NCBI GenBank assembly: GCA_964353775.1
Contig: CAYGWB010000002.1
Coordinates: 5,185 to 69,184 of the forward strand
Reading direction: 5' to 3'
DNA length: 64,000 nucleotides
DNA from: an uncultured archaeon
GTDB taxonomy: Archaea > Aenigmatarchaeota > Aenigmatarchaeia > Aenigmatarchaeales > JAHLMS01
Shown here: positions 26,026 to 63,975 of the stretch, in pieces
Layout: each line of letters starts with the position of its first letter
Numbering within the stretch: the first letter of the stretch is position 1
The notes under the pieces: model-generated
Seen by the model: the letters and a program-made list of their open reading frames with translations, nothing else
What the model was told of the DNA's origin: nothing
Databases searched by the model: none
Position numbers and translations under genes: made by a program

Positions 26026-26055
26026 ATAAAATGTTTTGCGTCAACTTCAGCACCA

Positions 26056-26065: not shown

Positions 26066-26086
26066 TGGATTTACTATATTGGAACT

Positions 26087-33779: not shown

Positions 33780-36512
33780 TCACGAGCAACCAGAAGTGGC
33801 CCCGCAGTTCAAACACTTGTAGCATGAGCCGCTTCGCACCATTATCGATCCGCAGAGATAGCATGGCGGAGCGTCGGACTGGCTTGTGAACGACCTGTGA
33901 AGGTCGAATTTCTCCGTCAGCCTCTTCTGCTTCGCTTCCGTGTCCTCTGGCTTCACTATCTTCGGCAGCTCGAGCGTCGTGCCGTTAATCGGTGCTATCA
34001 ACCCCATCGATTCCAGCTCCTCCGATTTCAGGAACTTGGTCGCGAGCCATCTAAAAATATAATCGACGATCGACTTGGCGAACCTGATGTCAGGGTTCTC
34101 CGTGACGCCGGACGGTTCGAACCGCATGTGGACGAACTTGTCGGCCAGAACTTTCAACGGCACGCCGTACTGCAGGGCCATCGAGACCGACAGTCCTATG
34201 CTGTCCATGAGGCCGGAAATAGTGCTGCCTTCCTTGGCCATCTTTATGAATATCTCGCCCGGTGCGCCGTCCTCGTAAAGGCCGACCGTTATGTAGCCTT
34301 CGTGTCCGCCAACGGCGAACTTGTGCGTGATCGATGCCCTCTCAGGCGGCATTTTGTGCCTGACGGTCTTCTGAACCTTCTTCTCGTCGATCTTGGATGT
34401 CATCAGCGGCTGTGATCGCTTGCAACCGTCGCGGTAGATGGCGATCGCCTTCAGGCCCATCTTCCATGACGTCATGTAGACGTCCGCTATTTCCGATTGC
34501 GTCGCCTCGTTCGGCATGTTGACCGTCTTTGATATCGCGCCTGAGATGAACGGCTGAGCAGCGGCCATCATCCTGACGTGGCCCATGTAGTGGATTGTCC
34601 GCGTTCCCTTGGCGGGCTTGAATGCGCAGTCAAAGACCGGCAGATGCTCGGACAAAAGACCTGGAGCGCCTTCTATAGTATCGTTCTTGTCGATGTGTTC
34701 GAGTATGTCCCTGATCTGGCCGTCCGAGTAGCCAAGGTTCTTCAGCGCTTCTGGAACGGTGCGGTTGACCATCTTTATCACTCCACCGCCGACCAGACGC
34801 TTGTATTTCACCAGAGCGATGTCCGGCTCTATGCCGGTTGTGTCGCAGTCCATCATGAAACTGATCGTACCTGTCGGAGCGAGCAGGGTTACGTTCGCAT
34901 TCCTGAAGCCCCATTTCTTTCCGGCATCAACAACGGAGTCCCAAGCCGAAGTGACGGACGCAAGCAGGTCGACCGGCACTCCTACGCTTCCTATCTTGTA
35001 AGAATAATCTCGATGCATGTTCATCACGTTCAGCATCGGCTGTTCGTTGTCCTTGTAGTGTTTGAACGTTCCTACCTCCTTTGCTATCACCGCCGACTGC
35101 TTGTAGGCCGCCGCTGTCATTAGCGCGGTCAGAGCGGCCGAGAAATTCCTGCCGGCTTCGCTGTCATATGCGAGCCCTCTGGACATGAGCAGAGCTCCCA
35201 GATTGGCATAACCCAGGCCGAGCGGCCTGAACTCCTTGCTGTTCCTTGTGATCAGCTCGGTCGGATAGCCGGCATTGTCGACTATGATCTCCATCGCAGT
35301 CAAAATTATGTCGATGGCGCGCTCGAAGGCAGCGATGTCGAACTCGCAGGTCGGCGTTCTGAACTTCATCAGGTTGAGCGAAGCGAGATTGCAGGCGCTG
35401 TTGTCGAGGAAGACGAACTCGGCGCACGGGTTGCTTGCGTTGATCCTTCCGCTGTTAGGACAGGTGTGCCAGCGGTTCGTCGTGCTGTCAAACTGCAATG
35501 CAGGGTCGCCGCAGATGTGCGCTGAGTCTGTTATCGCAGCCATTACTTCCTTCGCCTTGTAGTTGTCCGCCGGCTGTTTAGAAACGACATAGTGCGTCGT
35601 CCACGTCCCGTCCGTGTCGACAGCGCGCATGAAATCGTCAGTGACGCGCACGCTGTGGTTCGCGTTCTGGAACTGGACCGAATCGTAAGCTCCGCCCGCG
35701 ACATTGAAAGTGCCGTCGTAGCCTGCGTCTATCAGCGCCCAGGCCTTCTTCTCCTCCTCGGCCTTGCACTTGATGAACTCCATCACGTCGGGATGATCGA
35801 TGTTCATTATGACCATCTTCGCGGCGCGTCTTGTCTTGCCGCCGGACTTGATGACGCCGGCGAAGGCGTCGAAGCCTCGCATGAAGCTGACCGGACCGGA
35901 AGCCTTTCCGCCCGATGACAGCGTCTCCTTGGCGCTGCGCAGAGCGGAAACGTTGACGCCCGAACCGCTGCCGTACTTGAATATCATCCCCTCTTCGTTC
36001 ACGAGATTGAGTATCGAACGCATTTCGTCCTTGACTGAAAGAATGAAGCACGCCGAGCATTGCGGTTCCTTCTCTACACCGACATTGAACCAGACCGGAC
36101 TGTTGAAAGAGAGATACTGATTTATCAGCAGGTATGTCAGTTCCGACTCGAAGGTCGCGGCGTCCTCTGCTGTCGCGAAATATCCGCCCGACTGGCCCCA
36201 GCTCGCCACTGTCCGTGAGACGCGATCTATCATCTGCCTTAGCGACCACTCGCGGGCGGGCGTTCCCTGCTTTCCTCGGAAATATTTAGAAGCGACTATG
36301 TTGACCGCGGTCTGCGACCAGGACTTCGGCACCTCGACGCCCTTCTGTTCGAAGACAGTATCGCCCTTCTCGTTTATTATCGCTGCGTCGCGGATGTCCC
36401 ATTCGACCGACTCAAAAGGATGCACGCCCGGCTTTGTGAAGAAGTGTGCGAACCTCAGACCTTTCGGTCCGCCGTCCATTATCTCATGTACGATCTCGAC
36501 TTTGTCTGTCAT
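33780..36512 (-). CDS. nrdJ: ribonucleotide reductase, class II, long monomeric type with C-terminal zinc ribbon
   Basis: Active-site NPCAEFVFLDNSACNLASLNL; C-terminal CYLCG...CYKCLNCG zinc finger; 910 aa. Confidence 0.8.
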   Translation of the reverse strand: MTDKVEIVHEIMDGGPKGLRFAHFFTKPGVHPFESVEWDIRDAAIINEKGDTVFEQKGVEVPKSWSQTAVNIVASKYFRGKQGTPAREWSLRQMIDRVSRTVASWGQSGGYFATAEDAATFESELTYLLINQYLSFNSPVWFNVGVEKEPQCSACFILSVKDEMRSILNLVNEEGMIFKYGSGSGVNVSALRSAKETLSSGGKASGPVSFMRGFDAFAGVIKSGGKTRRAAKMVIMNIDHPDVMEFIKCKAEEEKKAWALIDAGYDGTFNVAGGAYDSVQFQNANHSVRVTDDFMRAVDTDGTWTTHYVVSKQPADNYKAKEVMAAITDSAHICGDPALQFDSTTNRWHTCPNSGRINASNPCAEFVFLDNSACNLASLNLMKFRTPTCEFDIAAFERAIDIILTAMEIIVDNAGYPTELITRNSKEFRPLGLGYANLGALLMSRGLAYDSEAGRNFSAALTALMTAAAYKQSAVIAKEVGTFKHYKDNEQPMLNVMNMHRDYSYKIGSVGVPVDLLASVTSAWDSVVDAGKKWGFRNANVTLLAPTGTISFMMDCDTTGIEPDIALVKYKRLVGGGVIKMVNRTVPEALKNLGYSDGQIRDILEHIDKNDTIEGAPGLLSEHLPVFDCAFKPAKGTRTIHYMGHVRMMAAAQPFISGAISKTVNMPNEATQSEIADVYMTSWKMGLKAIAIYRDGCKRSQPLMTSKIDEKKVQKTVRHKMPPERASITHKFAVGGHEGYITVGLYEDGAPGEIFIKMAKEGSTISGLMDSIGLSVSMALQYGVPLKVLADKFVHMRFEPSGVTENPDIRFAKSIVDYIFRWLATKFLKSEELESMGLIAPINGTTLELPKIVKPEDTEAKQKRLTEKFDLHRSFTSQSDAPPCYLCGSIMVRSGSCYKCLNCGATSGCS

Positions 36513-37076: not shown

Positions 37077-37955
37077 TCACTTCTCGCCGAGGACCCTCGC
37101 GGCCTCGTTGACAAGGTCTCTAATGCTGCGAACAGGTACTCCGGTCATTTCGGCCAGCTCTTCGGCCGGCCGTTTCATCAAATCCTTGACCAGCATCATA
37201 CTGGCGGCTGAAAATTTGTCCAGCATGGTCGGGTCGAGCGTGCGCAGCGACGTTATCGGGTAGAGGTTCTTGCTTTCCATAAGCACTTCCAGGCTGTTGC
37301 CTGAAGGATAACCCCATCCCAGCATAACTATGTTCTTGCAGTTCGCGTACTGGATCGCGTCCGTTGAGAATTTTGTGTTGGTCGCGAGCCACGGCTGGTC
37401 GAACCTCTGGCATTTGCCCTGGCGCCAACCGTCCTGCAGATCGAGGAAGCGCGCGTATGTGTACAGCGTCTCTTTCAGACCGGTGTAGATGCCGGTCGCG
37501 TGATGGAACTTGCACTCTATCATGTAATTCTTCAGCTGTGGTTCGGCCAGTTCGGTCGGCATCTTGATCGGCTTGGCCGCAATGATATCGATCTCATGCG
37601 TCACGCATGCGCCTTGTATCATCGAGTGCACGCGCGCAGAATAGCCGTGCTCTTTCAGCACTTCAGCGACTAGAGCCTCGAAAGCGAAGCCCGCCGGTCC
37701 CAGCCTCATTATCGCGCCTTTGAGGTCGTAGCGTGCGGCCACGTGCGGATGCTCGACATCCATGAGCTGCAACGCCAGTTCCAGAATCTCCCTGGTGCTC
37801 ATGCCGTCGTATACCTTGGCGGTCACTTTACTTACGATATTCTCCGCCAGTTCTATCGGTGCGCCAGCACGCAGACAGGTCTTCCTTATCTTTTCAGGAT
37901 CGAACGGGACCCTTTCTCCGCTCGCCTTGACTACAATTATTTGCTTGGCCATCAA
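37077..37955 (-). CDS. ATP-cone + Mrr-like PD-(D/E)xK nuclease + C-terminal HhH fusion protein
   Basis: N-terminal ATP-cone (QIIVVKASGERVPFDPEKIRK); Mrr catalytic core HEIDIIAAK ... YMIECKFHH; C-terminal HhH (LAEMTGVPVRSIRDLV). Confidence 0.6.
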   Translation of the reverse strand: MMAKQIIVVKASGERVPFDPEKIRKTCLRAGAPIELAENIVSKVTAKVYDGMSTREILELALQLMDVEHPHVAARYDLKGAIMRLGPAGFAFEALVAEVLKEHGYSARVHSMIQGACVTHEIDIIAAKPIKMPTELAEPQLKNYMIECKFHHATGIYTGLKETLYTYARFLDLQDGWRQGKCQRFDQPWLATNTKFSTDAIQYANCKNIVMLGWGYPSGNSLEVLMESKNLYPITSLRTLDPTMLDKFSAASMMLVKDLMKRPAEELAEMTGVPVRSIRDLVNEAARVLGEK

Positions 37956-40551: not shown

Positions 40552-40588
40552 GAAGCTAGATAGGTTAGAAGAGTATTTAAAAAATCCT

Positions 40589-41131
40589 CTACGCGACTAT
40601 CTGCTGGCTGATTCTGAGCGCGGCTTCCCTGCCCATGAGCTGCTCGACTATCTTCAATGCGAACGCTATGGACGTTCCCGGTCCCTGGCTTGTCACGATG
40701 TTGCCGTCCACGACGACGCGGTCGGACCTCGGCCGGTCGAATCCTTTCTCTAGGCCAGGATAGGCGGTCGCTTTCTTGTCCGCGAGTATTCCTAGCTTGT
40801 GCAGGATCGGCGGTGCGGCGCATATTGCTCCGATGAACTTGCCGTTCTTCGCAAAGTCCTGCAGAGTCTTTGTCAGCGTCGGCATCTTGCCCAGGATGTC
40901 CACGGCGGCCGTTCCACCGGGCAGAATTATCCCGTCGAACTTGTTCAGGTCCTCGTCCAGAAGCCTCGTGTCAGCGTGCATTCGGACCTTGGAGACCGAA
41001 GTCACCAGGTTGCCGGATATTCCGGCCGTCACGATATTGACACCTGCGCGTCGCAGTATGTCCACGACAGCGAGGGCCTCTATGTCCTCGAATCCGTCAG
41101 CTAGCGGCATCAAAATTTTTGGCATAATCAT
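40589..41131 (-). CDS. DJ-1/PfpI-family protein
   Basis: Nucleophile elbow AICAAP, class I glutamine-amidotransferase-like fold. Confidence 0.8.
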   Translation of the reverse strand: MIMPKILMPLADGFEDIEALAVVDILRRAGVNIVTAGISGNLVTSVSKVRMHADTRLLDEDLNKFDGIILPGGTAAVDILGKMPTLTKTLQDFAKNGKFIGAICAAPPILHKLGILADKKATAYPGLEKGFDRPRSDRVVVDGNIVTSQGPGTSIAFALKIVEQLMGREAALRISQQIVA

Positions 41132-41182: not shown

Positions 41183-41689
41183 TTAACGTTTCATGGCCGC
41201 TATGAAGGCATCCATGAATTCTGTCGTATGACCGGTGCTCGACGCCGTTATTATATTGCCGTCCGTTTCGACCGGCGCGCCCGTGTACTGTCCGTACATG
41301 CTCATCACGTCGCGTTCGGTCGGCCTGGCGGTCACCCTCTTTCCTCTAATTATCTGGGCGTGCGCGAGTATGGTCGGCGACAGACCGATTGCGCCGACCG
41401 GCTTTCCGGCCTCGAAGAACTCCTTGGCGAGCTGTAGCGCACGGCGGTTCGTGATGTAGGCCGCCGCGCCCGTGCCGCCTATGAAGATTATTCCCTGGAA
41501 GCTCTTGCTGTCCACGTGATAGAAGTCGCCGTGCGGCGTTATCACGCTGCCGCGCTCTCCCTTTGTGGCCTGGCCCGTGCTGTTGACTATCATTACCTCG
41601 ATGTTGGCCTTCAGCAGCATGCTTGTTATTATCACCAGCTGCTTGTCGTTGAAGTCGTACGGCGCGACCACTACGAGCACTCTTGTCAT
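41183..41689 (-). CDS. DJ-1/PfpI-family protein (tandem paralog)
   Basis: Start at internal MTRVLVVV; GAIGLSPTILAHAQII region. Confidence 0.65.
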   Translation of the reverse strand: MTRVLVVVAPYDFNDKQLVIITSMLLKANIEVMIVNSTGQATKGERGSVITPHGDFYHVDSKSFQGIIFIGGTGAAAYITNRRALQLAKEFFEAGKPVGAIGLSPTILAHAQIIRGKRVTARPTERDVMSMYGQYTGAPVETDGNIITASSTGHTTEFMDAFIAAMKR

Positions 41690-41765
41690 GCAACTTAGTT
41701 CGCGGGTCAACTTGAAAAAGTTAAGCTTTTTAAGGTTCGGTAACAAGGGTTTTGGCAGGTGATAT

Positions 41766-42206
41766 TTGATGCCAATAGTGGGTCTGGTACTGCGCACGAT
41801 CTCAGCGACAAGAAATATCGATATCGAAGGCGGAGTCAAGGTCAGCAATAACACCAACATACGAGAAGTGAAAGAGAGCGACATGGGCCTGATCGGCAAG
41901 AAGGGGCTCGTCGTTTCATTCGATTTCAAGACAGTCTACGAATCGGAAAAAATGAAGAAGAGCTTTGCCGAACTGAATATCAGCGGCGACGTGCTTATCA
42001 TCGAGGACAAGTACAAGGACGTATTGGACGGATGGAAGAAGAACAAGAAGCTTCCGGACAAGATGAACATTGCTATCGTCAATACGGTTCTTAGGCGCTG
42101 CCTGACGGAAGGACTGGTTCTCAGCGAGAAGCTGAACCTGCCGCCGCCAATGGTATTGCCGTTCGCATCTGACAAGCCGCCGGAAGACAGCAGATACATT
42201 GGTTAA
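41766..42206 (+). CDS. hypothetical protein
   Basis: ORF only. Confidence 0.4.
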   Translation: MMPIVGLVLRTISATRNIDIEGGVKVSNNTNIREVKESDMGLIGKKGLVVSFDFKTVYESEKMKKSFAELNISGDVLIIEDKYKDVLDGWKKNKKLPDKMNIAIVNTVLRRCLTEGLVLSEKLNLPPPMVLPFASDKPPEDSRYIG

Positions 42207-52004: not shown

Positions 52005-52715
52005 TCATCTCTCGACAACGACGATATCTCCGGTAAATAGGAGAATAGAATTTATGAGCATGTCCTGATCAACTTCGATTATGCCCTTTGTTTTATTGCT
52101 CATCCTTTCATTGTCCATAACAATAAATCTGTCTTTTTTATGGCCTATCACTGTTACGAAATGGCCAAAGGCCACTCCCCGTATGTCATCATATTTTTTC
52201 CTATACACCCTTCTTTTACCATAAAAAATGCTTCCATTTACAGGACATATGACCGGTATTCCTCTGGAAATATAACTGCTGATGAGCTCTTTGGTGATCG
52301 GTTTGAAAACTATGTTTCCGCCTTTGGTCAGAAAATCTATTATTGCCTTGGTTGATTGCTTATAACACCAGAAAATATATCCGTCGCGGACATCACGGGC
52401 GTTGTATCTTGTTACGAACGCGAGCCTCTTCTTGAGTCTTCTAATGAGCGCTGGTTTTGAAAGTTTATACCATGCCGGGTCAAAAAAATGGGTTGAAAGG
52501 GTGAAAATGGTGGCATTGAACCCCCTCGCAACCGCTGCTGTTCCTAGCTTGAATTCCCAATCCACGTATTTTTGTTCGGATCTGGTATCATTGATTATCT
52601 TGCGTAGGTTGTAATTATCTCTGCCCAAATAATCCATCACTATCTTGAGGGCGGCCGGGCCGCATTCCATATGGGGCTGAACTATTCTTTTCAATTTGAT
52701 TTTCGTTGGCATCAT
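52005..52715 (-). CDS. peptidase C39-like domain protein (stand-alone, no ABC transporter fusion)
   Basis: Q..HMECGPAALKIVMDYLG matches the Gln/Cys region of C39 bacteriocin-processing peptidases. Confidence 0.6.
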   Translation of the reverse strand: MMPTKIKLKRIVQPHMECGPAALKIVMDYLGRDNYNLRKIINDTRSEQKYVDWEFKLGTAAVARGFNATIFTLSTHFFDPAWYKLSKPALIRRLKKRLAFVTRYNARDVRDGYIFWCYKQSTKAIIDFLTKGGNIVFKPITKELISSYISRGIPVICPVNGSIFYGKRRVYRKKYDDIRGVAFGHFVTVIGHKKDRFIVMDNERMSNKTKGIIEVDQDMLINSILLFTGDIVVVER

Positions 52716-52744
52716 AAATAAATAGAACTCTCTTTATTTATACT

Positions 52745-54049
52745 TTGAGCGTGTTTGCAATTCGTCTGAGCGATATTTTTGACGGCAATGAGTGCGGGAA
52801 GGAAGAGCTAGAAAGAAAGCTGTCCGTCATAACCGATAAAAAATTCGGCCTGGTAAAATCATTAGAAAAGACGCTGAAATTCAACGACGAACCGAAGCTG
52901 CATCATTACGTCATCGCATTGGCAGGCAGGCAATTTTCCAGCGGGACTGCGCTCAGTGACGAAAGGGCCAGATTGAAAGCCGTCTGTGAAGCGATCGAGA
53001 GGTTCTGCCTTTCAAAATATGACGGAAAGACTTCGATAATTTCATCGTATTCTAAACTCGAACAGGCGCTTGATCCGACCTCTCTGGCCGGAGTTGCGCC
53101 GCAGGATAAGAAGAAGTTCGGCAATTATGACGGAAATACAAAATTCGCATGGGTAAGCGGCCTCTCTATGACAAGAAATGATAAAATCTGGATACCGGCG
53201 CAGCTCGTATATGTTCCGTATCAAAGCAACGAGCCTGTAATAAGAAATACAATATCCACCGGCGCCGCATCGGGAACGTCCTACTCGGCGGCGATTTATC
53301 GCGGCCTCTGCGAGGTCATAGAAAGGGACGCATTCATGATAACATATCTTAACAAGTTGCCGAGGTCCGTGATAGACATAGCCTCTGCAAAAAGCGAGGA
53401 CGTCCGAAGGCTGGACTACATCTTCAGAAGGTACGACCTGGAGAGATACTCCTTTGACATAACCACCGATGTGGGCGTTCCTGTGATATTGACCATTCTT
53501 GTGGACAGGAGCGGCGTCGGACCGTCCGTCAGCCTGGGCATGAAATGCAGCTTCAACGTAGAAGAGGCGCTGCTCGGGTCCATGGAAGAAGCGCAGCAAA
53601 CAAGGCCATGGATACGGGGGGAAATGCACAAGTTTTTGCAAACGGGAAAAATGCCGCCGGAACAACGGCACTTTTTAGAGAGGGCATTTTTCTGGTACGA
53701 TGTCGGCATGATCAAAAAACTGGATTTCCTGCTCAAAACAAAAAATAAAATAAAAATTAGCAGAATAAAGAGCCGTAACTTCAAGGACAGCAACGAACGG
53801 CTAAGAGCGGTCCTGCGCGCCCTGAGGGGCTACGAGACGGACGTAGTTGACCTGACTGATAAAAAAATAGGAAGGGCCGGCTTCAGGGTTATCAAGGCGA
53901 TAGTGCCTGAGATGCAACCGCTGCACCTTGTAGAAGGGCGGCGGTACCTGGGCGGCCGACGATTATATGCCGTACCTAGGATATTGGGTTACAGGAAGAG
54001 GGACAGCAAATACGACGACCTGAACAAAACGCCTCATCCGTTTTTGTGA
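52745..54049 (+). CDS. YcaO-domain protein (ATP-dependent cyclodehydratase family)
   Basis: YcaO motifs: ...SSGTALSDE..., CEAIERF, STGAASGTSYSAAIYRGLCEVIERDAF; TTG/GTG start. Confidence 0.8.
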   Translation: MSVFAIRLSDIFDGNECGKEELERKLSVITDKKFGLVKSLEKTLKFNDEPKLHHYVIALAGRQFSSGTALSDERARLKAVCEAIERFCLSKYDGKTSIISSYSKLEQALDPTSLAGVAPQDKKKFGNYDGNTKFAWVSGLSMTRNDKIWIPAQLVYVPYQSNEPVIRNTISTGAASGTSYSAAIYRGLCEVIERDAFMITYLNKLPRSVIDIASAKSEDVRRLDYIFRRYDLERYSFDITTDVGVPVILTILVDRSGVGPSVSLGMKCSFNVEEALLGSMEEAQQTRPWIRGEMHKFLQTGKMPPEQRHFLERAFFWYDVGMIKKLDFLLKTKNKIKISRIKSRNFKDSNERLRAVLRALRGYETDVVDLTDKKIGRAGFRVIKAIVPEMQPLHLVEGRRYLGGRRLYAVPRILGYRKRDSKYDDLNKTPHPFL

Positions 54050-54777
54050 TAGTCATGGCAGACGATTTCGTTCAGAAGACCAAAATCAAGTCCTTTTCTG
54101 GAAAGAGGAGTTCTTCCACGATGCCATATGTCTACGATAAGATCCATTTCAAGAGCTATCCGCGCTTCAAAAGCACGTGCTTCAAAAAAATAATACCTTC
54201 CAATGAAATTGAAAAGCTGCTCCTGAAAAGGAGCTCGGAAAGGGCCTTCAGTGGAAGGCCGCTCTCATTGGATGAGCTCGGAAAGCTGCTGTATTTCAGC
54301 GGAGGAGTAAGCTGCGTCCGCAAGAAGGACTTTGACCACAGCCGCAGAACGTATCCTTCAGCCGGGGCGAGATACCCGCTCGAGATATATCCGATCGTGT
54401 TCAATGTACGCGGACTGAAACCGGGCGTCTATCATTACAACGTCAAGAGCAACTCTCTGGAGACGATACTGGAAGGCAATGCCAGGAACGTCTTTCCCTG
54501 CCTCGACCAGAGCTGGACAAAGAAGGCTTCGGTGATAATATTGGTTTCTGCCGTGTTTGCCAGGACCACGATAAAATATCATGAACGCGGGTACAGGTAC
54601 GTCTTTCTGGACGCCGGGCACCTTGTGCAGAACATGTATCTGGCTTCGGCTTCCATGGGCCTGAACTGCTGCAGCATAGGCGGCTTCGTGGACGACGGGC
54701 TTAACGAACTGCTGGATATAGACGGCGAAAAAGAATCCGTAATATATGTGGTCGGCATCGGCAAAAGGCGTGTTTAA
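54046..54777 (+). CDS. SagB-type (McbC-like) FMN-dependent dehydrogenase
   Basis: Nitroreductase-fold SagB signatures RSSERAFSG, RTYPSAGARYPLEIY, VFLDAGHLVQNMYL; overlaps ycaO by 4 nt. Confidence 0.8.
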   Translation: MIVMADDFVQKTKIKSFSGKRSSSTMPYVYDKIHFKSYPRFKSTCFKKIIPSNEIEKLLLKRSSERAFSGRPLSLDELGKLLYFSGGVSCVRKKDFDHSRRTYPSAGARYPLEIYPIVFNVRGLKPGVYHYNVKSNSLETILEGNARNVFPCLDQSWTKKASVIILVSAVFARTTIKYHERGYRYVFLDAGHLVQNMYLASASMGLNCCSIGGFVDDGLNELLDIDGEKESVIYVVGIGKRRV

Positions 54778-54800
54778 ATAACTTTCTTACCAGTTATTGC

Positions 54801-54974
54801 CATGTCAAAAGAATATCAGAACAGGGCACTTGCAGATGCGACAGAATTCCCTTCACCAAAAATGAAGGAATATAATACTGCCAGCAACTGCAATGGTGGC
54901 AACTGCACAGGACCGCCGTCGAACTGCTATGGCGGAGTCCCTGTAAAGCGCGCCAGAACCTCTAGAAAAAAGTA
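54801..54974 (+). CDS. candidate RiPP precursor peptide, 57 aa (not in ORF track)
   Basis: ATG 24 nt after sagB-like stop, same strand; MSKEYQNRALADATEFPSPKMKEYNTASNCNGGNCTGPPSNCYGGVPVKRARTSRKK: polar leader then Cys/Asn/Gly/Ser-rich core with three N-C dipeptides, basic tail; followed by T-run. Confidence 0.55.
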
Positions 54975-55009
54975 AGGCCGTCGTTGCTAAACGATGACTT
55001 AGCTTGGCT

Positions 55010-55020
55010 ATGTTTTTTTA
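55010..55020 (+). terminator. oligo-T terminator after candidate precursor gene
   Basis: T7 run about 37 nt after precursor stop, preceded by imperfect hairpin GTCGTTG..CGATGAC. Confidence 0.45.
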
Positions 55021-55264: not shown

Positions 55265-55756
55265 TTAGCGTCCGAGCATGTCGTAGACACCCTTGTAGCC
55301 CTTGAGGGCTAGTTCGCTGGTGTCTTTGACCAGCTCGATTGTCACGGAGCCGGCATCATAGAGCTCGTTAACCTTTGCGGTGAAGTTGGCTGCTTCGTAC
55401 AGCTCCTTGAATGTGTCCGAGCTCATTGCCATTTTTATGTCAGGTTCCGCTGTCTGGCCTAGCTCCGTTGTCGGAACGTTGTTGATCGTCCTTACCGTAA
55501 AGAAGATGTTCGAGTCCGTAAGAAAGACCAGGAAGACCGGCGGGTTGCCTGACATGTCAGGGTGCAACATGTATGCGCCCAGTTCGTTGGACAGCCAGTT
55601 AACGTTCGCCGTTTCTATGTTCTCGCCGAGCGCAGGCTTTGCTATGTCCGGCTTCGTGACAAATGCCGGCGAGATTATCGTGAAGTAGAAGAGGACGACT
55701 GCGATGACGGCTATCGCTATTATCGCCAACGCGATGTGCTTGGTCTTCATAGCCAA
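55265..55756 (-). CDS. membrane-anchored/secreted hypothetical protein
   Basis: N-terminal TM helix (IALAIIAIAVIAVVLFYF). Confidence 0.45.
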   Translation of the reverse strand: MAMKTKHIALAIIAIAVIAVVLFYFTIISPAFVTKPDIAKPALGENIETANVNWLSNELGAYMLHPDMSGNPPVFLVFLTDSNIFFTVRTINNVPTTELGQTAEPDIKMAMSSDTFKELYEAANFTAKVNELYDAGSVTIELVKDTSELALKGYKGVYDMLGR

Positions 55757-55828
55757 GATATGCGTTAGCTATTATAAAAAAGTGCGGTTTATTGACGGAT
55801 TTAAAACCTTTTCTATCAAAGTCTTATT

Positions 55829-56830
55829 ATGGCGTCTGACGTAATGTACATGCCGGCCTCCGAGGAAGCAGAGACAATATTCTGGCCGCGCAAGGTCATA
55901 ACAATAGATGCGGGCGCGTTTTATTCCAACCTGTATGACGGATATGCGATCACGCCTGAACTGGAAGATTATCTGAACGATATACGCATACCGCATCCCA
56001 ACGACAGACACCGGGATTTAACTCAGTACGCACGTCTGGCCGAACGCAATGGGGCGTTAAAGGGTGATTGGGGACCGAACGTCATAGACAGAGTAATGAT
56101 CCCTTACTTTACTAACCAGGACGGGATTGTTTTGGACGTGAGGGGCGTGACAACGTGGAAGCTCGCCACCCTTGCACGACCGGAGCACAACAAAATATCA
56201 AAACAGCTAATAGAGAGCAGGGACAAGGGCGATTACTACAGCCTTGTCGATCACACCGTAGGCGTATATGCGATCGTTCTGACAAGCGACGACAGGCTCG
56301 TTTACGGGGTGAAGGGCAAAGGAAAGCAGTTCGGCGGACCCGGCGAGCATACGCTGGTCGCCGGAATGGGCGACCGCGGCACGATGTCCAACATGGCCCT
56401 GCACGAGATAAAGGACGAACTTGGTCTTACGGAAGACGACTTCCACTTCCTGAACCACGAGAAAAGACCGGTGGGCTGGAAAGAATACGCCGGTGGATCG
56501 GATGACAAGGAATCGAAGAAGTGGAAGATGCTGATGGCGAACAACATACCTCCGTTCATGGTATTCGACAAACCGATGAGCAACAACCCGATGGCCGTTT
56601 TCATAGCCCGAACTGAGCTCAGCTGGATGAAGCTGGAGCTGGAACTGAAAAAGAGGCGCGATAAAAGCAACCCGGACGGCGCAGTTGACGCATGGGAGCA
56701 CGAGTACTTGTCGTCGATCGAAGCGACGCCTGAAAATATCCGCGAGGCCGTCAAGGAAAACTGGCCTAAGTCCCAGGCAAAGGTTCTCGGTATTTTTGCA
56801 GACTATATCGAAGGCAAGAAGCTGTCTTAA
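55829..56830 (+). CDS. hypothetical protein
   Basis: ORF only. Confidence 0.45.
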   Translation: MASDVMYMPASEEAETIFWPRKVITIDAGAFYSNLYDGYAITPELEDYLNDIRIPHPNDRHRDLTQYARLAERNGALKGDWGPNVIDRVMIPYFTNQDGIVLDVRGVTTWKLATLARPEHNKISKQLIESRDKGDYYSLVDHTVGVYAIVLTSDDRLVYGVKGKGKQFGGPGEHTLVAGMGDRGTMSNMALHEIKDELGLTEDDFHFLNHEKRPVGWKEYAGGSDDKESKKWKMLMANNIPPFMVFDKPMSNNPMAVFIARTELSWMKLELELKKRRDKSNPDGAVDAWEHEYLSSIEATPENIREAVKENWPKSQAKVLGIFADYIEGKKLS

Positions 56831-56884
56831 CTTTTTTCTGAGCTGAAGCGTAAAAATATAAGCGGGCTAAGCGAATCAATCGGC

Positions 56885-57361
56885 ATGCGGAAGTCTAAGA
56901 TCAACTGGTTCAAGCTGATAATTTCTATCGCGATATGCCAGATGGCCGGCGTGGTCGGGTCGCTGGCTACGATGCCGTCGATCGGCACGTGGTATGCGAC
57001 GCTTGCGAAGCCGTGGTGGACCCCGCCGAACTGGCTGTTCGGACCGGTATGGATAACGCTGTTCACGCTGATGGGCATATCGCTCTATCTGGTCTGGTTC
57101 GAGGCCGGGCGGAAGAAGGAGCTCCCGTTCTTTCCTTTACAGCTCGGGCTCAACATCATGTGGTCGTACATGTTCTTCGGCCTGCACAGGCCGGACGCGG
57201 CGTTCAAGGTGATAATCTTCCTCTGGCTGGCGATACTCGGGAACATATACGTGTTCTACAAAGTGGACAAACGGGCCGGGTATTTACTGGTTCCGTATAT
57301 CGTCTGGGTCACGATAGCGGCTGCCCTGAACTATTCGGTGTGGATGCTGAACCTGGTTTGA
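56885..57361 (+). CDS. tspO: TspO/MBR family tryptophan-rich sensory protein
   Basis: Five-TM, Trp-rich (WYATLAKPWWTPPNWLFGPVW). Confidence 0.8.
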   Translation: MRKSKINWFKLIISIAICQMAGVVGSLATMPSIGTWYATLAKPWWTPPNWLFGPVWITLFTLMGISLYLVWFEAGRKKELPFFPLQLGLNIMWSYMFFGLHRPDAAFKVIIFLWLAILGNIYVFYKVDKRAGYLLVPYIVWVTIAAALNYSVWMLNLV

Positions 57362-57387
57362 AACTTTGACAAATTTCATCTGTCTGG

Positions 57388-58215
57388 TCAAATTTCTTTA
57401 AAAAGATAAGAATCGCAGATAACATCGGCAAGTTGATCAAATGTTATTTGCCGCATTGCATATTTGTTAAAAGCCTTCAGATCATTATTTCTCATGTTTA
57501 CCAGGTTTAAAGTTTCTATTTCTGTTAAACATAGGTCCTTTTCGCCGGTATCCATGTCGTCACAAACAATATCTGTATGTTTCATGGCAATTTTCCAGCA
57601 AGAATAGTCAGCTATTTTTTCGTCAAATAACGTTTCATACTTAACATCATACCGTTCTTTCAAGGGTTCGATAGCATCCAGATGTGCAATACCCATCTGA
57701 ACAACAGAATAGGCATAATTGTTTTTGACTATTTCCTCATCAATACGCTTTGCCATAAGAGTACTTCTTTCCCTTGCACAATCGTAGCTCTTCTTATAAA
57801 ATACTAGCAACGCGTCTACTTCTTTTCTGATAGCATTCATGTCGTTCTTCTCGACTCCATACTTCATCAGAACCTTATGAGTTAATAGTGAGAATGCTGT
57901 GCTTTCGCTTTTTCTATTCAGTTCTAACTGTTCGGCTACTTTTTTATCGTCATCTATAAAAATAACATCCAGACCCTTTTTCTTTGCGTTGCAATAACTG
58001 GTTTTGAAGAAACTTGGTATGTTCTCTTTGGTAGTATCGTCGTTATATACCAAACCGAGTTTTACACCGCGTTTTGCCAAGTCATTTTCGGTTCTCGCGA
58101 AATCAGGGTTTAATTCCAAGAAGTAAGCATCATACTTGTTTCTGATAATATCAAGCGCCACAATATTATCAAGAGCAGCCGAATGCGGTATAGCAAAAAT
58201 ATTTACTTCTGCCAT
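57388..58215 (-). CDS. hypothetical protein (low-GC island)
   Basis: ORF only; AT-rich codon usage. Confidence 0.4.
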   Translation of the reverse strand: MAEVNIFAIPHSAALDNIVALDIIRNKYDAYFLELNPDFARTENDLAKRGVKLGLVYNDDTTKENIPSFFKTSYCNAKKKGLDVIFIDDDKKVAEQLELNRKSESTAFSLLTHKVLMKYGVEKNDMNAIRKEVDALLVFYKKSYDCARERSTLMAKRIDEEIVKNNYAYSVVQMGIAHLDAIEPLKERYDVKYETLFDEKIADYSCWKIAMKHTDIVCDDMDTGEKDLCLTEIETLNLVNMRNNDLKAFNKYAMRQITFDQLADVICDSYLFKEI

Positions 58216-58290
58216 ATTTTTATTTGGGCAATAATCTTTAAATATACCTCTAAAAAGTGATAAACCTAGTGTGGATGCTGAACGTTTAGT

Positions 58291-59640
58291 TCATGTATGA
58301 TATTTTTTCATGCGAAAGGGTAGACCAGGTAAAGAAATTATCTCTAACGCATCGCCTTTCATCCTTTTCCATTCGCTGTCTATGTGCTGAAAGTGTTCCT
58401 TGTTTATATATTCGACATCAAGCCTGAACTCTTTCATCTGCTCATCATAGGCTTCCTGGTTCTTGATGTGAGTCTCGTAATAAGTGACCTCATCCGTTTT
58501 AGAATCGCGCACCTTTCCGTGGGAGGCAAAAGCATAGCCGGGTTCTAACTCGTGCTTCGCTTCAAGGTTCTTTCGCCTCAACAGATAGTATTTGATATCA
58601 CCGAGCAGGTTTACCCAGTCGGTCCAGCAGTTGTAGTCATCGTCGCTGCGCATCCAAAGCTTGTTCTCCGGCTCCTTCAGGTATTCGCCCTTCTCGTAAT
58701 CCCAGACTCCGACATATTCCGCCTCCAACACCTCGCATAACATGTCGGCCGTCCTCACGCCACGGTCGGTCCAGAGGCCTCGCATCTGCCTGGGTAGATA
58801 TGGGGGGAAAGGTCCGAGGAATTCCCGATCATCCCTGATCATCTGGTCCGTGACCAGTGTCTCGTACCTTATACTTCCTTCGGATTCATCTATCTTTACA
58901 AGCAAGTTGTCCGGGTTCGGATCCGTCAGTGTCACCATCACGGGCGTCCTGGAGCCGCATATGTCATAGATGCAGCTCTTGTACTTGTCCAATATTTCGG
59001 CGAGCCTGTCAACCTCTTTCGGCGGCGGCAGGAAGTCCCTCGACCAGACCATTTCCGGATGCGTTTCCTCGTAGCCCGGATAGAACGACCTTATCTGTTT
59101 GATGTATCTTTCGCATTTTGCAACCTGGGTAACCAGGAAGTCCCTGGCGATACCCTCCCTCTCTTCATTGGTATTCAGCATTATGTTGAGTATGTTCTTT
59201 TTATGCGCCTTGAGTTCTGGATGCCTGGCCTGGTAGGTCTCTATGGGCCTGCGGACCCCGAAAAAATCGAGGACCAGCGCGTTGTAGAGTTCCTCTTGTT
59301 CTGGTGTGGCGCTCTTGAAGAGCTTGAGCCAGTCGTGGTCTATGTATTCGTGCATGGTCCAAAAACTGTATACCCTTTCCACCTTGTACTTCATCTTCTT
59401 GTCGCCTTTGGAGACCGTGACGTCGTAGAATTCCTGGCCGGCCCTGTCCATCCTGCGTCTGTTCCACATTTCCATGTCCAGCTCCACCATGATCGAGCTC
59501 TTATCGGAAGTTATTTCGCACTGTTTGTTGTTCTCGTTGACGGTGTTGTTCATGATGAGCGAGATTGCACAGTCGCACAGATCCGACCACTCGCCTAAGG
59601 AGCCTTCCTTCACATACCAGTTTTTCGTTGCTTTTGACAT
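58291..59640 (-). CDS. hypothetical protein (low-GC island)
   Basis: ORF only. Confidence 0.4.
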   Translation of the reverse strand: MSKATKNWYVKEGSLGEWSDLCDCAISLIMNNTVNENNKQCEITSDKSSIMVELDMEMWNRRRMDRAGQEFYDVTVSKGDKKMKYKVERVYSFWTMHEYIDHDWLKLFKSATPEQEELYNALVLDFFGVRRPIETYQARHPELKAHKKNILNIMLNTNEEREGIARDFLVTQVAKCERYIKQIRSFYPGYEETHPEMVWSRDFLPPPKEVDRLAEILDKYKSCIYDICGSRTPVMVTLTDPNPDNLLVKIDESEGSIRYETLVTDQMIRDDREFLGPFPPYLPRQMRGLWTDRGVRTADMLCEVLEAEYVGVWDYEKGEYLKEPENKLWMRSDDDYNCWTDWVNLLGDIKYYLLRRKNLEAKHELEPGYAFASHGKVRDSKTDEVTYYETHIKNQEAYDEQMKEFRLDVEYINKEHFQHIDSEWKRMKGDALEIISLPGLPFRMKKYHT

Positions 59641-59689
59641 AACAATAAAGAAAAATTGAACAACAAACTTTATATCCTTGAATATAGCT

Positions 59690-59945
59690 ACCGCTAAAGA
59701 AGTCAGTAAATCTTTTCAGAATTTACTAGAAGCTTCTCTTTTTTGCGAAACAATCTCTGCAAAAGACGGGTCTATCTCCGGATGGCTTGAAAGGAACTTC
59801 GCATTCCTGCTTGCATTCTGCACAGACAGCCTTATGCATTTCCCTGGGTCCACGGTCAAAGCTTCTGCCGCCGCCGAAACGTCTTTCTCCGAATGGCATA
59901 TTTTTTTCCTCCTGCTTTTAGTTGCTTCATAATGTTTATAAAGGC
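59690..59945. repeat. repeat copy B homologous to 44153-44425
   Basis: Same as copy A. Confidence 0.7.
59726..59899 (-). CDS. small zinc-ribbon protein, copy B (57 aa; not in ORF track)
   Basis: MPFGERRFGGGRSFDRGPREMHKAVCAECKQECEVPFKPSGDRPVFCRDCFAKKRSF, about 84% identical to copy A; SD GGAGG and TATA-like TTTATAAAC conserved. Confidence 0.65.
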   Translation of the reverse strand: MPFGERRFGGGRSFDRGPREMHKAVCAECKQECEVPFKPSGDRPVFCRDCFAKKRSF

Positions 59946-60430
59946 GTTTGATGGGGGCGTATTTTCACGGCCTTCAGTGGTGAATTTTCTGATATTTGTG
60001 TCCGATCGCTGCCGCGCTTAACTATAGCATGTGTATGCTGAACCTTTGATTCGGTCGTACCGCTGAAAATACGATAGTTTTCACTCTACTTGGCGGGTTA
60101 AACAGTTAAGTATAAATGCTTGAAAAAACCAGTTTGGAGCATGAGAAAATTAGATACAGAAGAGATGCCGCCAATCGGTTCTATCTCTCTGGGCCAACGA
60201 GCACTGCCGGAGAACCGCGCCGCTGACTATGCGCCTTTCGGGGCGAACGGTTATCGCGTAGTTCCCAACGAGTTCGAAGGTTCGGATAGAAATACCGTAG
60301 TGGTTGCATACTACAAGTTCCCAGAGTAGATCCCTTTCTGCGCCGTTATTTTAACAGCGCTTTCTTAGCAGCGCGAGCAATCTACGGTTTTCGCCGTGCT
60401 TAAATTCTTTTGTAATCATTATTTTTAATA

Positions 60431-61669
60431 ATGACAGCTTTTAGCAAGGAGTTCATAAGAAAGGCCGATGAGGAGGCCGAAAGGATAATTCGGGAATACG
60501 AAGAGGGGGAACGACGATATCAAGAAACCGCCCGGAGACGCCAGAACCTGAGCAGCAACGACGTCCTCAGCGTCGGTTATTGCCTAGGCAGGTATCTTGG
60601 CGAACATAAGAACTGGCTTGGCAACTCGCCTTATTGCTATGAGATGAGGAAGGACAATGAGAAGCTCAAAGTGACGTACAGGAACTTTCCTGAGGTAGGT
60701 TACAACCTGTTCATCCAACTCTTTCAAAGAAACCGGCAGGAATGGATTGAAGTTTCCACCCGCACATTTGGCAGTCCGGTCGCGTATCTGAGCGAGGCCG
60801 GAAACCCGGACAATATGGAAGGCCGGTTGATAGACGTCTTCATACTGAAGAACTTCAACGAAATCAAGGACAGAATATGCAAGAACGCCGATTATGTCTA
60901 TAACACCTTCTTGATACCCAAATATTTTGATCGCTTGAAAGAGGTGGGAAAGCTAGACCCTTCAACGATTCCACTTACGGCAGGAGAAGTGAAGGAGCTG
61001 GATAGGCGGCTTGGTGTCATATATTCGAGCGACAAGCTGTTGGGAATAAAGAACGATCTGGCGAGAAAGCTGATACAAAAGCTCGAGAAAAGAGGCTCGG
61101 CGAGGCAAAAATGCAAAAGAGGGATGACGACATCTGACCTCGGAAGCATAGGGCATTCCAGACTTTCCGAAAAGGACGCAGAAGAAAGCGACAGCATAGC
61201 CGGCTTCAGGAAGGACCTTCCTCATGGCACAAGATCCATATGGGAAGCAAATTATGCGAGGGCTCTCATTTATGACGGAATAGACTACCGGTATGAGCCA
61301 GAGTCCTTCGAACTTGATGTGTCTGGAGAGTCTAGAAATCTGTTCAAAAAGGATAAAATAACTTATGTTCCGGACTTCATGATCAGGGATACGAATCATT
61401 TCGTCGAAGTGAAGGGGTTTGAAAACGCGATTTCGACCGCAAAAATTGCTCTGCTGCGGTCCCAATTTCCGGAAATAGATGTCAGGGTAGTCGGGCGGGC
61501 AGAATATGACGAACTGACCAAGCAGTACGAAGATACTATAAACAATGATACGAGATTCTGCGGATGGGAAAATGGTAACAGAACGACGGGAAACAATCTG
61601 TTCACAAACACTGAAAAGTTCAGAAAGATACAGGAAGAAAAAGGGAAAGGCCGGTGCCTTGATGAGTAG
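60431..61669 (+). CDS. hypothetical protein with C-terminal PD-(D/E)xK nuclease-like motif
   Basis: C-terminal ...YVPDFMIRDTNHFVEVKGF... (D ... E-V-K) restriction-endonuclease-like core. Confidence 0.4.
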   Translation: MTAFSKEFIRKADEEAERIIREYEEGERRYQETARRRQNLSSNDVLSVGYCLGRYLGEHKNWLGNSPYCYEMRKDNEKLKVTYRNFPEVGYNLFIQLFQRNRQEWIEVSTRTFGSPVAYLSEAGNPDNMEGRLIDVFILKNFNEIKDRICKNADYVYNTFLIPKYFDRLKEVGKLDPSTIPLTAGEVKELDRRLGVIYSSDKLLGIKNDLARKLIQKLEKRGSARQKCKRGMTTSDLGSIGHSRLSEKDAEESDSIAGFRKDLPHGTRSIWEANYARALIYDGIDYRYEPESFELDVSGESRNLFKKDKITYVPDFMIRDTNHFVEVKGFENAISTAKIALLRSQFPEIDVRVVGRAEYDELTKQYEDTINNDTRFCGWENGNRTTGNNLFTNTEKFRKIQEEKGKGRCLDE

Positions 61670-62698: not shown

Positions 62699-63337
62699 CT
62701 ATGCACATTTTTGAACAATTCTATATTTTGTTACGGTTCTGTATGCAGTCTTTGTTGGGGGTGTGACTTGATGTGTACCGCTGACCTGCTCGCCCATATC
62801 AGTATTGAAAATAGCCTCAAACGTTTCTGTTGAATGGGCGTTGATGTATGCTGTCTTTGAATCCATCAAAGTGCCATGATTGCTGGTACTGAGTGCATAA
62901 TTTACAACGAAAGAGCCTCCTGCATCATCGCCGTTTGAAACTATCACTTTGTATCTTTGAAAGAATCCTAATTGTGTATTCCAATCTTCAGTGATCGTAG
63001 AACTAATTATTGAATAGCTTAAAGGTTCTTGATACGCTTCTTGTTCGGTATACGGTTCTTGAATATTTTGACATTGCTGTCCTGGTATAACCCCACCTTG
63101 GCTGCCAGATAAACTAATTAATAATATGCCAATGATGATCACTACACCTATAGCTAAAAATGTAGCATATTTTTTCATATTCAATTGAGGTTTAGCTTCT
63201 GCTTTAGGTGATTTTACAGTTTTAATTTTTGGCTTCTTCTCAACAGTCATAATCATCTTAATTAGTTTCCCGCCACATTCCTCGCAGAAATTTTTATTTT
63301 CTGTATATTCTTTCTTACATTTCTTACAATATTTCAT
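62699..63337 (-). CDS. zinc-ribbon + single-TM protein with extracellular domain
   Basis: N-terminal CKKCKK...CEECGG zinc ribbon, TM helix, Ser/Thr-rich ectodomain. Confidence 0.45.
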   Translation of the reverse strand: MKYCKKCKKEYTENKNFCEECGGKLIKMIMTVEKKPKIKTVKSPKAEAKPQLNMKKYATFLAIGVVIIIGILLISLSGSQGGVIPGQQCQNIQEPYTEQEAYQEPLSYSIISSTITEDWNTQLGFFQRYKVIVSNGDDAGGSFVVNYALSTSNHGTLMDSKTAYINAHSTETFEAIFNTDMGEQVSGTHQVTPPTKTAYRTVTKYRIVQKCA

Positions 63338-63975
63338 ATCCTTTTACCACACTTCGGGCAAAATTTGCCCTTGGTTTTCGCTCCGCAATTATCACAGAAC
63401 TTTGTCTTCGAATCCACTTTTTTAATTACTTTATGTTTCTTGCTTTTTATCTCGGGTGGCTCAGATATTTCAACTTTGCTTATTACAGACTCTCCTACTA
63501 ATTTTCTTCTATGAAATTCAATTTGAGTTCTCCATATATCGCGATTGTCAAGATGAATAATAATTTTTGGATTTGTTCTAAAGAATTTCCAAAAACCTTT
63601 TTTTATATCAAATTCTATAACCAACTGACTTTTCTTAACACTGAGTAATCCGGAAGGTGTCTCGACCTTCTTCACGGCTTCTAACGGCAAATCCATCCAT
63701 GTCATTACCATAGCTGTAGAGCTCTTTTTGGGCTGGCCATAAAGTAAACTCTCCCAGAAACTCTGAGCTTCCTTATTCAATTTTTTCCAATCCATGATTT
63801 TTGCAATAAGAAATAATATCCTTTGATTCGTGAGATAAATTTTAGCATCAAATGAGTCTGTTCCAAAAACATTACTCCCGCCTTCTATTGTAACAAAATC
63901 AGGGGTCTCGGCAACAACTTCTTCATAATCTCTAATTTCTTTAAAAACACCTATAATTTTTGGCATACCGGTCAT
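63334..63975 (-). CDS. PH/GRAM-like domain protein with C-terminal zinc ribbon
   Basis: YLTNQRILF block of bacterial PH-like domain; C-terminal CDNCGAKTKGKFCPKCG. Confidence 0.4.
   Translation of the reverse strand: MTGMPKIIGVFKEIRDYEEVVAETPDFVTIEGGSNVFGTDSFDAKIYLTNQRILFLIAKIMDWKKLNKEAQSFWESLLYGQPKKSSTAMVMTWMDLPLEAVKKVETPSGLLSVKKSQLVIEFDIKKGFWKFFRTNPKIIIHLDNRDIWRTQIEFHRRKLVGESVISKVEISEPPEIKSKKHKVIKKVDSKTKFCDNCGAKTKGKFCPKCGKRI

Follow-up and report, generated by a model that had tools for sequence, protein, structure and literature searches.

Clusters in which a YcaO enzyme, a nitroreductase, a peptidase and an adjacent precursor peptide are encoded together were described by genome mining in bacteria of the Candidate Phyla Radiation (CPR) by Sharrar et al. 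in 2020 in mBio (PMC7298704). That study counted 110 clusters for linear peptides that contain azol(in)es (LAPs) spread over another 93 CPR genomes; the nitroreductase gene stands beside the YcaO gene in 89 of these clusters, and none of the clusters has been characterised (PMC7298704). In archaea, Cox et al. catalogued in 2015 families of thiazole/oxazole-modified microcins (TOMMs), named haloazolisin and thermoacidophisin, and reported TOMM clusters in a large share of the sequenced archaea (PMC4603692). A 2025 survey located YcaO-related clusters for peptides made on the ribosome and modified after translation (RiPPs) across archaeal superphyla including DPANN (Diapherotrites, Parvarchaeota, Aenigmarchaeota, Nanoarchaeota and Nanohaloarchaeota) (PMC12144867). 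According to Travin et al. (2020), the YcaO of LAP clusters has an E1-like or ThiF-like partner "in most cases", and clusters with a standalone YcaO were left out of their mining (PMC7136475). The present work concerns a 64-kb stretch of contig CAYGWB010000002.1 (hereafter the window), in which a C39-like cysteine peptidase, a YcaO, a SagB-type dehydrogenase and a 57-residue candidate precursor are encoded side by side from position 52005 to 54975. This locus is an archaeal member of the cluster kind already flagged by genome mining, and we consider it likely to be a functional, self-contained cluster for a linear azole peptide (LAP/TOMM-type RiPP) of a DPANN-type archaeon.

The YcaO gene (+ strand) ends at 54049 and starts either with TTG at 52745 or with GTG at 52751, which gives a protein of 434 or 432 residues. 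This protein scored 260.8 bits with TIGR03604, the SagD family component of thiazole/oxazole maturases (curated cut-off 219.25), and 198.5 bits with PF02624, whereas the McrA-thioamidation model TIGR03266 gave 105 bits against a cut-off of 365. The models thus agree with the earlier note on this DNA, which had taken the enzyme for an azoline-forming YcaO: it is of the SagD/TOMM type and not of the TfuA-type thioamidation family. In an alignment with 64 homologues, E80, E83 and R84 as well as E188, E191 and R192 were invariant or nearly so, and the extreme C-terminus, PHPF(L) (P428-H429-P430-F431), was conserved. We take the two glutamate motifs to be the ATP/Mg site of YcaO enzymes. The AlphaFold2 (AF2) model of the protein, with a predicted local distance difference test score (pLDDT) of 94.6, had LynD as its best structural match in the PDB (template modelling score, TM, 0.82), followed by MusD and TruD; thioamide-forming methanogen YcaOs (TM 0.63-0.70), E. 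coli YcaO and McbD ranked lower. The family profile scored 152-169 bits with LynD/TruD-type heterocyclases and aligned over its full length with residues 349-775 of LynD only, and the C-terminal TPHPF aligned with the TPMPF that ends LynD and TruD. Taken together, sequence and model argue for an azoline-forming cyclodehydratase of the SagD/TOMM type. LynD, TruD, PatD and MusD, which are its closest solved structures, have in common with it the CEAIER and E-x-x-ERD motifs and the terminal P-x-P-F. They differ from it in being fusions of about 780 residues with N-terminal RiPP recognition element (RRE) and E1-like domains, whereas the window enzyme is a bare YcaO domain, without E1-like or RRE domain, that corresponds to residues ~349-775 of LynD. 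The locus also differs from cyanobactin clusters in the absence of subtilisin-type PatA/PatG proteases, and no macrocyclisation is expected.

The dehydrogenase gene (+ strand, 54046 with a GTG start or 54055 with an ATG start, to 54777) encodes 243 or 240 residues. Its product scored 165.1 bits with TIGR03605, the SagB family (cut-off 78.4), and 86 bits with PF00881. Among PDB sequences it matched the tandem nitroreductase-fold protein 3eo7, the cyanobactin oxidase CyaGox, McbC and BmdC. It resembles the cyanobactin oxidases CyaGox and ThcOx, and its Lys177-Tyr178 aligns with the KY of CyaGox. With a score above the family cut-off and the Lys-Tyr motif, the protein carries the SagB signature that the earlier note had ascribed to it and is not a generic nitroreductase. 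To our knowledge, azolines are the only known substrates of SagB-family dehydrogenases. Moreover, sagB follows ycaO at 53 of 60 related loci, an arrangement far beyond chance.

The candidate precursor gene lies downstream of sagB (54802-54975, + strand) and was supported by synteny, profile search and motif. Its product, MSKEYQNRALADATEFPSPKMKEYNTASNCNGGNCTGPPSNCYGGVPVKRARTSRKK, can be read as a leader with L-A-D-A-T-E-F-P, a core with three Asn-Cys sites, a GG-VPV stretch and a polybasic tail (net charge +6). The open reading frame (ORF) has no family match and is absent from public gene calls. In the closest related locus (L061), which has a YcaO 64% identical to that of the window and the identical layout of peptidase (- strand), ycaO and sagB, a syntenic peptide (...SIEDVTEFPSAEYKKAKDRHAGNCTGPPSNCYGGHCSQSCGGSCGIPVRHIAKKK) is encoded downstream of sagB. 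The two peptides have TEFPS and a block of 13 residues, GNCTGPPSNCYGG, in common, and within this block 8 of 39 nucleotides differ, all of them synonymously. Judging from this comparison, the precursor gene is genuine and under purifying selection.

The wider family points in the same direction. At least 24 related loci have a cysteine-rich short ORF beside the YcaO gene, equipped with either a strong Shine-Dalgarno site or a TATA box; those of the CPR carry strong GGAGGTG ribosome-binding sites. A leader motif, [LIM]-[AS]-D-x-x-[ED]-F, which we defined in the present analysis and did not take from the literature, is common to many family precursors and appears in the window as LADATEF. A precursor profile built without the window sequence matched significantly only one of the 1,673 segments that the window yields in six frames, namely the 57-residue ORF (E = 2.3e-7; 3.7e-4 when L061 was left out, 5.6e-4 when all C39-type loci were left out). 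The peptides on which the profile was trained had been picked by eye, the window peptide was never among them, and the decoy control was independent of this picking: the expression [LIMV][ASE]D[ASTVC]x[ED]F with a downstream Cys retrieved 10 short segments in 9 loci from 17,244 segments, and none from reversed decoys. All of these matches adjoin a YcaO gene, and two had not previously been picked by eye.

Within the family, the precursors of loci with a C39-type peptidase form a subfamily with a D-x-[TMI]-E-F-P leader, a Cys/Ser core, Gly (GG, CG) or Ala, and then [IV]-P-[IV], which is replaced by VGS in L068. Their tails are strongly cationic (net +4 to +10). The idea that these C-terminal tails form amphipathic helices was dropped, as their hydrophobic moments were no better than those of shuffled sequences (p = 0.23-0.73). 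The exact peptide, of which 1.8 billion representative proteins include one close homologue, is rare, unlike the cluster type. A second match (P0251), a surface protein of the LPxTG type that is rich in repeats, was rejected as a spurious low-complexity match. Some relatives encode more than one precursor: L061 has two different ones, one on each side of the cluster (1010-1171 and 3987-4184, both + strand), and L012 has two in tandem (1439-1657 and 1745-1954). Two precursors per enzyme set hint at substrate-tolerant enzymes.

The fourth gene (52005-52715, - strand) encodes a standalone protein of 235-236 residues, without signal peptide or transporter domain. Its Pfam matches are weak (30 bits with PF13529, Peptidase_C39_2, cut-off 24; 22.4 bits with PF03412, Peptidase_C39, cut-off 22), and phmmer against PDB sequences gave no match. 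Q13, C18 and H185 were invariant in 8 homologues, and the AF2 model (pLDDT 81) had as its best Foldseek matches in the PDB the peptidase domains of PCAT1, ComA and LahT150 and the Bacillus anthracis C39-like protein 3erv. The papain-like fold and the Gln/Cys/His catalytic residues are those of PCAT1, ComA and LahT150; unlike these, the window peptidase is standalone and cytoplasmic, is not fused to an ATP-binding cassette (ABC) transporter and contains a helical insertion of about 80-90 residues. A homologous peptidase is found beside YcaO/SagB in L003, L030, L061, L062, L068 and L069. A word-based search with the peptidase yielded 6 proteins only, and the contigs L063-L065 were too short or otherwise arranged.

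Taken as a set, these genes have relatives in both domains. Hundreds of YcaO proteins are 36-44% identical to that of the window, and those that are named come from Aenigmarchaeota or CPR bacteria. Among contigs sampled at one genome per species, 58 related loci were recovered. The majority are from Patescibacteria, and the archaeal ones are from Aenigmatarchaeota, Nanoarchaeota, Woesearchaeota, Micrarchaeota, Bathyarchaeia and four haloarchaea. The YcaOs of the CPR and DPANN clusters are 36-64% identical to the window enzyme, and a peptidase of some kind is present at most of the related loci, elsewhere of the M16 type (12 CPR loci), papain-like with TPR (about 10) or DUF2268 (4). The statement of the earlier note that such a set is unusual in archaea was therefore too strong: it recurs in DPANN and is common in the CPR (PMC7298704), and archaeal TOMMs were already catalogued in 2015 (PMC4603692).

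The CPR LAP clusters are like the window locus in gene set and order, in the lack of an E1-like partner, in their YcaOs (36-44% identical; Levybacteria, Shapirobacteria, Giovannonibacteria and others), in the leader motif and in a Cys-rich core that ends in basic residues. They differ in host, the window being archaeal, and in the peptidase, which is C39-like here and M16, papain-like/TPR or DUF2268 in the CPR. In addition, the window precursor is encoded downstream of sagB behind an archaeal TATA box and not a Shine-Dalgarno site, and its G-[IV]-P-[IV] junction and polybasic tail are mainly a trait of the C39 subfamily. The archaeal TOMMs of 2015 are likewise uncharacterised clusters of YcaO and dehydrogenase, and the YcaOs of Halohasta and Halonotius are 31-34% identical to that of the window; they are set apart by a divergent C- or F-type partner, by other leaders and by a separate branch in the neighbour-joining (NJ) tree. 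With the canonical BCD synthetases (McbBCD of microcin B17, SagBCD of streptolysin S, Balh/plantazolicin) the locus shares an ATP-dependent YcaO (D), a flavin mononucleotide (FMN) dehydrogenase (B) and a leader-core precursor. It does not count as a canonical BCD TOMM, since a search for the C component, an E1-like scaffold with RRE, found none, either adjacent or fused. Further differences from these synthetases are the weak similarity of the window YcaO to McbD (37 bits; TM 0.56), the absence of an ABC exporter or immunity gene at the locus, and a protease that is a standalone C39-like protein in place of TldD/E or a CAAX-type enzyme.

From these elements the following pathway can be proposed. 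A TATA box of its own would drive transcription of the precursor gene into a leaderless mRNA. The YcaO, with ATP, would activate the amide carbonyl before each core Cys, and possibly before Ser/Thr too, to give thiazolines; we propose this step because of the family membership and the intact ATP-binding and C-terminal motifs of the enzyme. The SagB-type flavoprotein, with FMN, would then oxidise the thiazolines to thiazoles, with a predicted loss of 20 Da per ring and of 60 Da for three rings. The cytoplasmic C39-like peptidase would trim the peptide, and the sole conserved Gly site available to it is the GG/CG before the basic tail that begins with [IV]-P-[IV]. The product would most likely be a linear peptide with three thiazoles and a polybasic tail. 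Enzyme families, precursor and gene set thus agree with the azole-containing peptide proposed in the earlier note, for which the sequence gives support and the product is a prediction.

In this pathway, the substrate would probably be recognised through the leader motif, which precursors from partnerless loci of DPANN and of the CPR have in common, and the motif may be read directly by the YcaO or by a YcaO-SagB complex. We suggest direct reading because no E1-like or RRE partner is encoded nearby, and it fits with the DxxEF motif having been found in partnerless loci only: E1-associated L005, L008 and the haloarchaeal loci have other leaders. Leader type and presence of a partner therefore appear to co-vary. 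That the leader is read in this direct way, independently of any partner, seems to us an evenly balanced proposition.

Several observations weigh against the locus being a self-contained azole-peptide cluster of this kind. The chemistry has been shown for no member of the cluster family. The precursor core offers no more than three Cys, all of them directly preceded by Asn, so that the label "Cys-rich" previously given to the ORF holds in that it contains Cys but is generous as to their number. No transporter or immunity gene adjoins the cluster, and the genes that flank it (orf163, orf333, TspO and orf275) have no counterparts at the related loci and were excluded from it. A canonical double-glycine motif (LSxxELxxIxGG) was sought in the precursor leader and not found. 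The GG pairs of the peptide lie inside the core (CNGG) and ahead of the tail (CYGG-VPVK), and only the latter is kept in the C39 subfamily. The assignment of leader removal to the C39-type enzyme thus stands as regards fold and catalytic residues, but not as regards the leader itself, and removal of a C-terminal follower appears, from the precursor sequences, as plausible as removal of the leader. The remaining points concern the partner. The window covers 64 kb of a 205-kb contig, so that a distal E1-like partner is possible; and in a rough NJ tree partnered and partnerless YcaOs are interleaved, with the E1-associated Bathyarchaeota enzymes (L005/L008) sister to those of the window and L061.

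These last points lead to an alternative that we judge unlikely but that deserves to be weighed, namely that the locus is the incomplete view of a canonical, partner-dependent BCD synthetase, whose E1-like or Ocin-ThiF-like RRE protein is encoded outside the window. Besides the tree and the length of the contig, it is favoured by seven archaeal loci in which an E1-like/SagC-type gene (TIGR03603, TIGR03882 or ThiF) lies directly upstream of a YcaO gene whose product is about 40% identical to that of the window. Two of them are from metagenome-assembled genomes (MAGs) of Bathyarchaeota (L005, 4869-5946; L008, 4871-5947), one is from a MAG of Aenigmatarchaeota (L018, 4872-5942) and four are haloarchaeal (L031, L035, L042 and L055, ~4950-5990). 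Partnered and partnerless YcaOs are equal in length and architecture, and characterised azoline-forming YcaOs other than that of bottromycin use a partner (PMC7136475). On the other hand, 53 of 60 related loci, including all those of the CPR and all other C39-type loci, have no E1-like gene within about 6 kb. Where partners are present, they are always immediately upstream and co-directional, a place taken here by the divergent peptidase gene, and the leader motif common to the partnerless loci is absent from the partnered ones. In the window itself, tblastn with the seven E1-like partners of the related loci found nothing credible (best E = 0.017), and no member of the ThiF, E1 or TfuA families was seen among the window proteins scanned (for TfuA, about 12 kb on either side of the locus). 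The locus is thus, over the regions scanned, without a TfuA or E1-like partner, as the earlier note had it.

A second alternative is that the YcaO activates amides to another end, forming a thioamide, an amidine or a macroamidine or carrying out a MusD-like ATP-dependent cleavage, with the nitroreductase-fold protein in some other role. Precedents exist, since standalone YcaOs form amidines in bottromycin and streptamidine (PMC7136475; PMC8442711), MusD, the second-best structural match, is annotated with ATP-dependent peptidase activity, and McrA thioamidation is the best-known role of archaeal YcaOs (PMC5589413). The window YcaO indeed shares the fold of the TfuA-associated archaeal enzymes (TM 0.68-0.70 to MJ1094 and the Methanopyrus kandleri YcaO) and an archaeal host; it differs from them in lacking TfuA and an mcr context and in having a SagB partner and a peptide precursor. 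It lies above the SagD/TOMM cut-off and far below that for thioamidation, its Pro-rich C-terminus is that of the LynD/TruD heterocyclases, its family is coupled almost invariably to a SagB-family dehydrogenase with the Lys-Tyr motif, the precursor cores of the family are Cys-rich, and the proteins scanned include no TfuA. We therefore regard such other chemistry as very improbable. The BotC/BotCD enzymes of bottromycin remain of interest as the sole characterised precedent for partner-free azoline formation (PMC7136475), and the window precursor also has a conserved C-terminal extension. This likeness is one of description; the window family differs in pairing its YcaO with a SagB dehydrogenase and in a precursor with a conserved N-terminal motif.

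It is hardly credible that no modified peptide is made, whether because the locus is a remnant that is silent or in decay or because the 57-residue ORF is not a substrate: the ORF is uncalled by public gene callers, it has a single close homologue among the representative proteins, and YcaO or SagB is frameshifted in three relatives (L047, L051 and L059), but the three enzymes of the window are full length with intact catalytic motifs, the peptide core shows synonymous change only against L061, the TATA box is conserved at a conserved spacing, and the profile search singles out this very ORF.

The reading of the locus as a self-contained azole-peptide cluster can be extended, if only tentatively, to the family as a whole. 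YcaO and SagB may form a partner-independent azole synthetase that reads the seven-residue motif, the C39-like enzyme may cut at the Gly-[IV]-P junction, and the precursors, built of leader, core and cationic follower, may define a minimal azole RiPP class across DPANN and the CPR. If true, this class, found in two domains, would possibly serve interactions between episymbionts and their hosts or with competitors. In four published studies (PMC7298704, PMC12144867, PMC4603692, PMC7136475) we did not find the shared leader motif, its covariation with the partner, or the subfamily of the C39 type that is marked by a Gly-[IV]P junction and a cationic tail. A specialist in RiPPs is unlikely to find the existence of such a locus surprising. 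The cluster class is nonetheless under-sampled, because surveys excluded standalone YcaOs or required a C protein (PMC7136475; PMC4603692). The window locus, with four genes in 3 kb, a supported precursor, a leader motif and close relatives, is a practical candidate for heterologous reconstitution. It is also a compact test case for RRE-independent substrate recognition by a YcaO and for a first archaeal azole peptide. We know of no azole-containing RiPP characterised from any archaeon, nor of a characterised product of a YcaO-nitroreductase cluster from the CPR or DPANN.

The arrangement of the locus was also examined at the level of transcription signals. All four ORFs were recovered where the earlier note had placed them. 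The divergent peptidase and ycaO genes are separated by a spacer (52716-52744) that has the 29 bp given before when the TTG at 52745 is taken as the start of ycaO, but 35 bp with the GTG at 52751 used in public gene calls. An exact look-up of the TTG-start protein gave no match, and the GTG-start version is the recorded form. The DNA itself is present on two Logan contigs as well as on the 205-kb NCBI contig. Likewise, the described 4-nt overlap of ycaO and sagB holds for the GTG at 54046, whereas the ATG at 54055 of the public calls lies 5 nt past the ycaO stop. Whichever start codons are chosen, the genes are tightly packed. The spacer holds two A/T-rich, TATA-like boxes, AAATAAATA (52716-52724), oriented toward ycaO, and TATAAATAAA, the reverse complement of 52733-52742, oriented toward the peptidase gene. 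Both are 17-26 nt from the respective start codons, a spacing of the archaeal promoter type that suggests leaderless or near-leaderless mRNAs for ycaO and the peptidase gene.

A third box, the octamer TTTAAATA (54773-54780, + strand), overlaps the sagB stop codon and lies 21 nt before the ATG of the precursor gene. The window contains 9 copies of the octamer, where chance would give 1.3 (1226-1233, 40574-40581, 54773-54780, 58237-58244 and five more copies), and copies are found about 25 nt upstream of the genes for tRNA-Phe (1259) and tRNA-Gln (40551, minus strand). Because of this over-representation and of its position upstream of tRNA genes, we regard it as the TATA box of the source genome, with the help of which promoters and leaderless genes could be mapped along the contig. 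It also stands 22 nt (L061) and 21 nt (L003) upstream of precursor ATGs in related loci. The precursor gene is thus probably transcribed from a promoter of its own into a leaderless mRNA, as far as can be judged from the promoter sequence. The ORF begins 24 nt past the sagB stop, and the T-run noted earlier is present behind it: a hairpin (GTCGTT-GCTA-AACGAT, 54980-54995, + strand) is followed by a run of seven T (55013-55019), which together form a probable end of the transcription unit. Termination at oligo-T is established in archaea. A scan for sigma-70 promoters and intrinsic terminators gave chance-level counts only, with bacterial models applied to an archaeal host, and a tandem-repeat scan of the window found nothing of note.

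The archaeal origin of the window, which the earlier note had proposed, is borne out by its aminoacyl-tRNA synthetase (aaRS) genes. PheRS beta (TIGR00471, 580 bits), LeuRS (TIGR00395, 853 bits) and AlaRS (TIGR03683, 990 bits) match archaeal-type models, and the nearest named relative of AlaRS, 69% identical, is from a Candidatus Aenigmatarchaeota MAG. The host lineage is most likely DPANN and probably lies within the Aenigmatarchaeota, as these matches indicate; the species representatives of GTDB do not include the source genome. The aaRS genes are concentrated in two regions, 5007-16071 and 26036-28804, which are dense in genes for GlyRS, TrpRS, PheRS alpha and beta, LeuRS and AlaRS, all of archaeal type, with tRNA-Phe and tRNA-Trp genes interspersed.

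With a GC content of 0.469, the locus is below the window as a whole (0.513) and below the pur/guaA genes (0.53-0.58), which had been read as a sign of horizontal acquisition. The value is inside the normal spread of the window, where 8% of 3-kb windows have an equal or lower GC content, and so it speaks only weakly for a recent transfer. Most of the dip is due to the peptidase gene (0.414), and neighbouring ORFans go down to 0.36. The distribution of the family over the CPR and a number of archaeal phyla, with identities of about 40%, is better evidence of long-term movement between lineages. This level of identity between archaeal and CPR enzymes also suggests that the two groups, both of ultra-small organisms, have exchanged such genes.

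Some of the related loci show features of their own. A locus labelled Saccharibacteria (L013, 3148-8666) has two consecutive YcaO-SagB pairs, with no obvious precursor in an ATG-only scan for small ORFs. In L047, L051 and L059 the match to YcaO or SagB is split over several frames, a sign of frameshifts, of pseudogenes or of errors in assembly. Several contigs titled "uncultured Gammaproteobacteria bacterium" (e.g. L004, L006, L011, L012 and L016) carry CPR-like clusters with M16 peptidases and CPR-like precursors, and these titles may reflect mislabelled bins.

To the right of the locus (55265-61669) the window contains ORFs without family match, with a TspO gene in between: a membrane-anchored protein of 163 residues and proteins of 333, 275 (GC 0.36), 449 and 412 residues, the last with a weak match to Phage_endo_I. 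These ORFs are not conserved beside the related YcaO loci, and the block may represent an island, either variable or foreign. For the 333-residue protein, a Nudix-like identity, suggested by a NUDIX gene near L062, was rejected for want of family support. Elsewhere in the window, two different genes for adenosylcobalamin-dependent ribonucleotide reductases lie within 7 kb, one for a PRK08665-like enzyme of 695 residues (29742-31829, + strand) and one for a PRK06556-like enzyme of 910 residues (33780-36512, - strand). Near them lies a gene (37077-37955, - strand) for a protein that combines an ATP-cone, an Mrr-type restriction-endonuclease domain and an AF1548-like C-terminus. Tandem paralogues occur twice, as two DJ-1/PfpI proteins (40589-41131 and 41183-41929, - strand) and as two double zinc-ribbon proteins (62699-63337 and 63334-63975, - strand).

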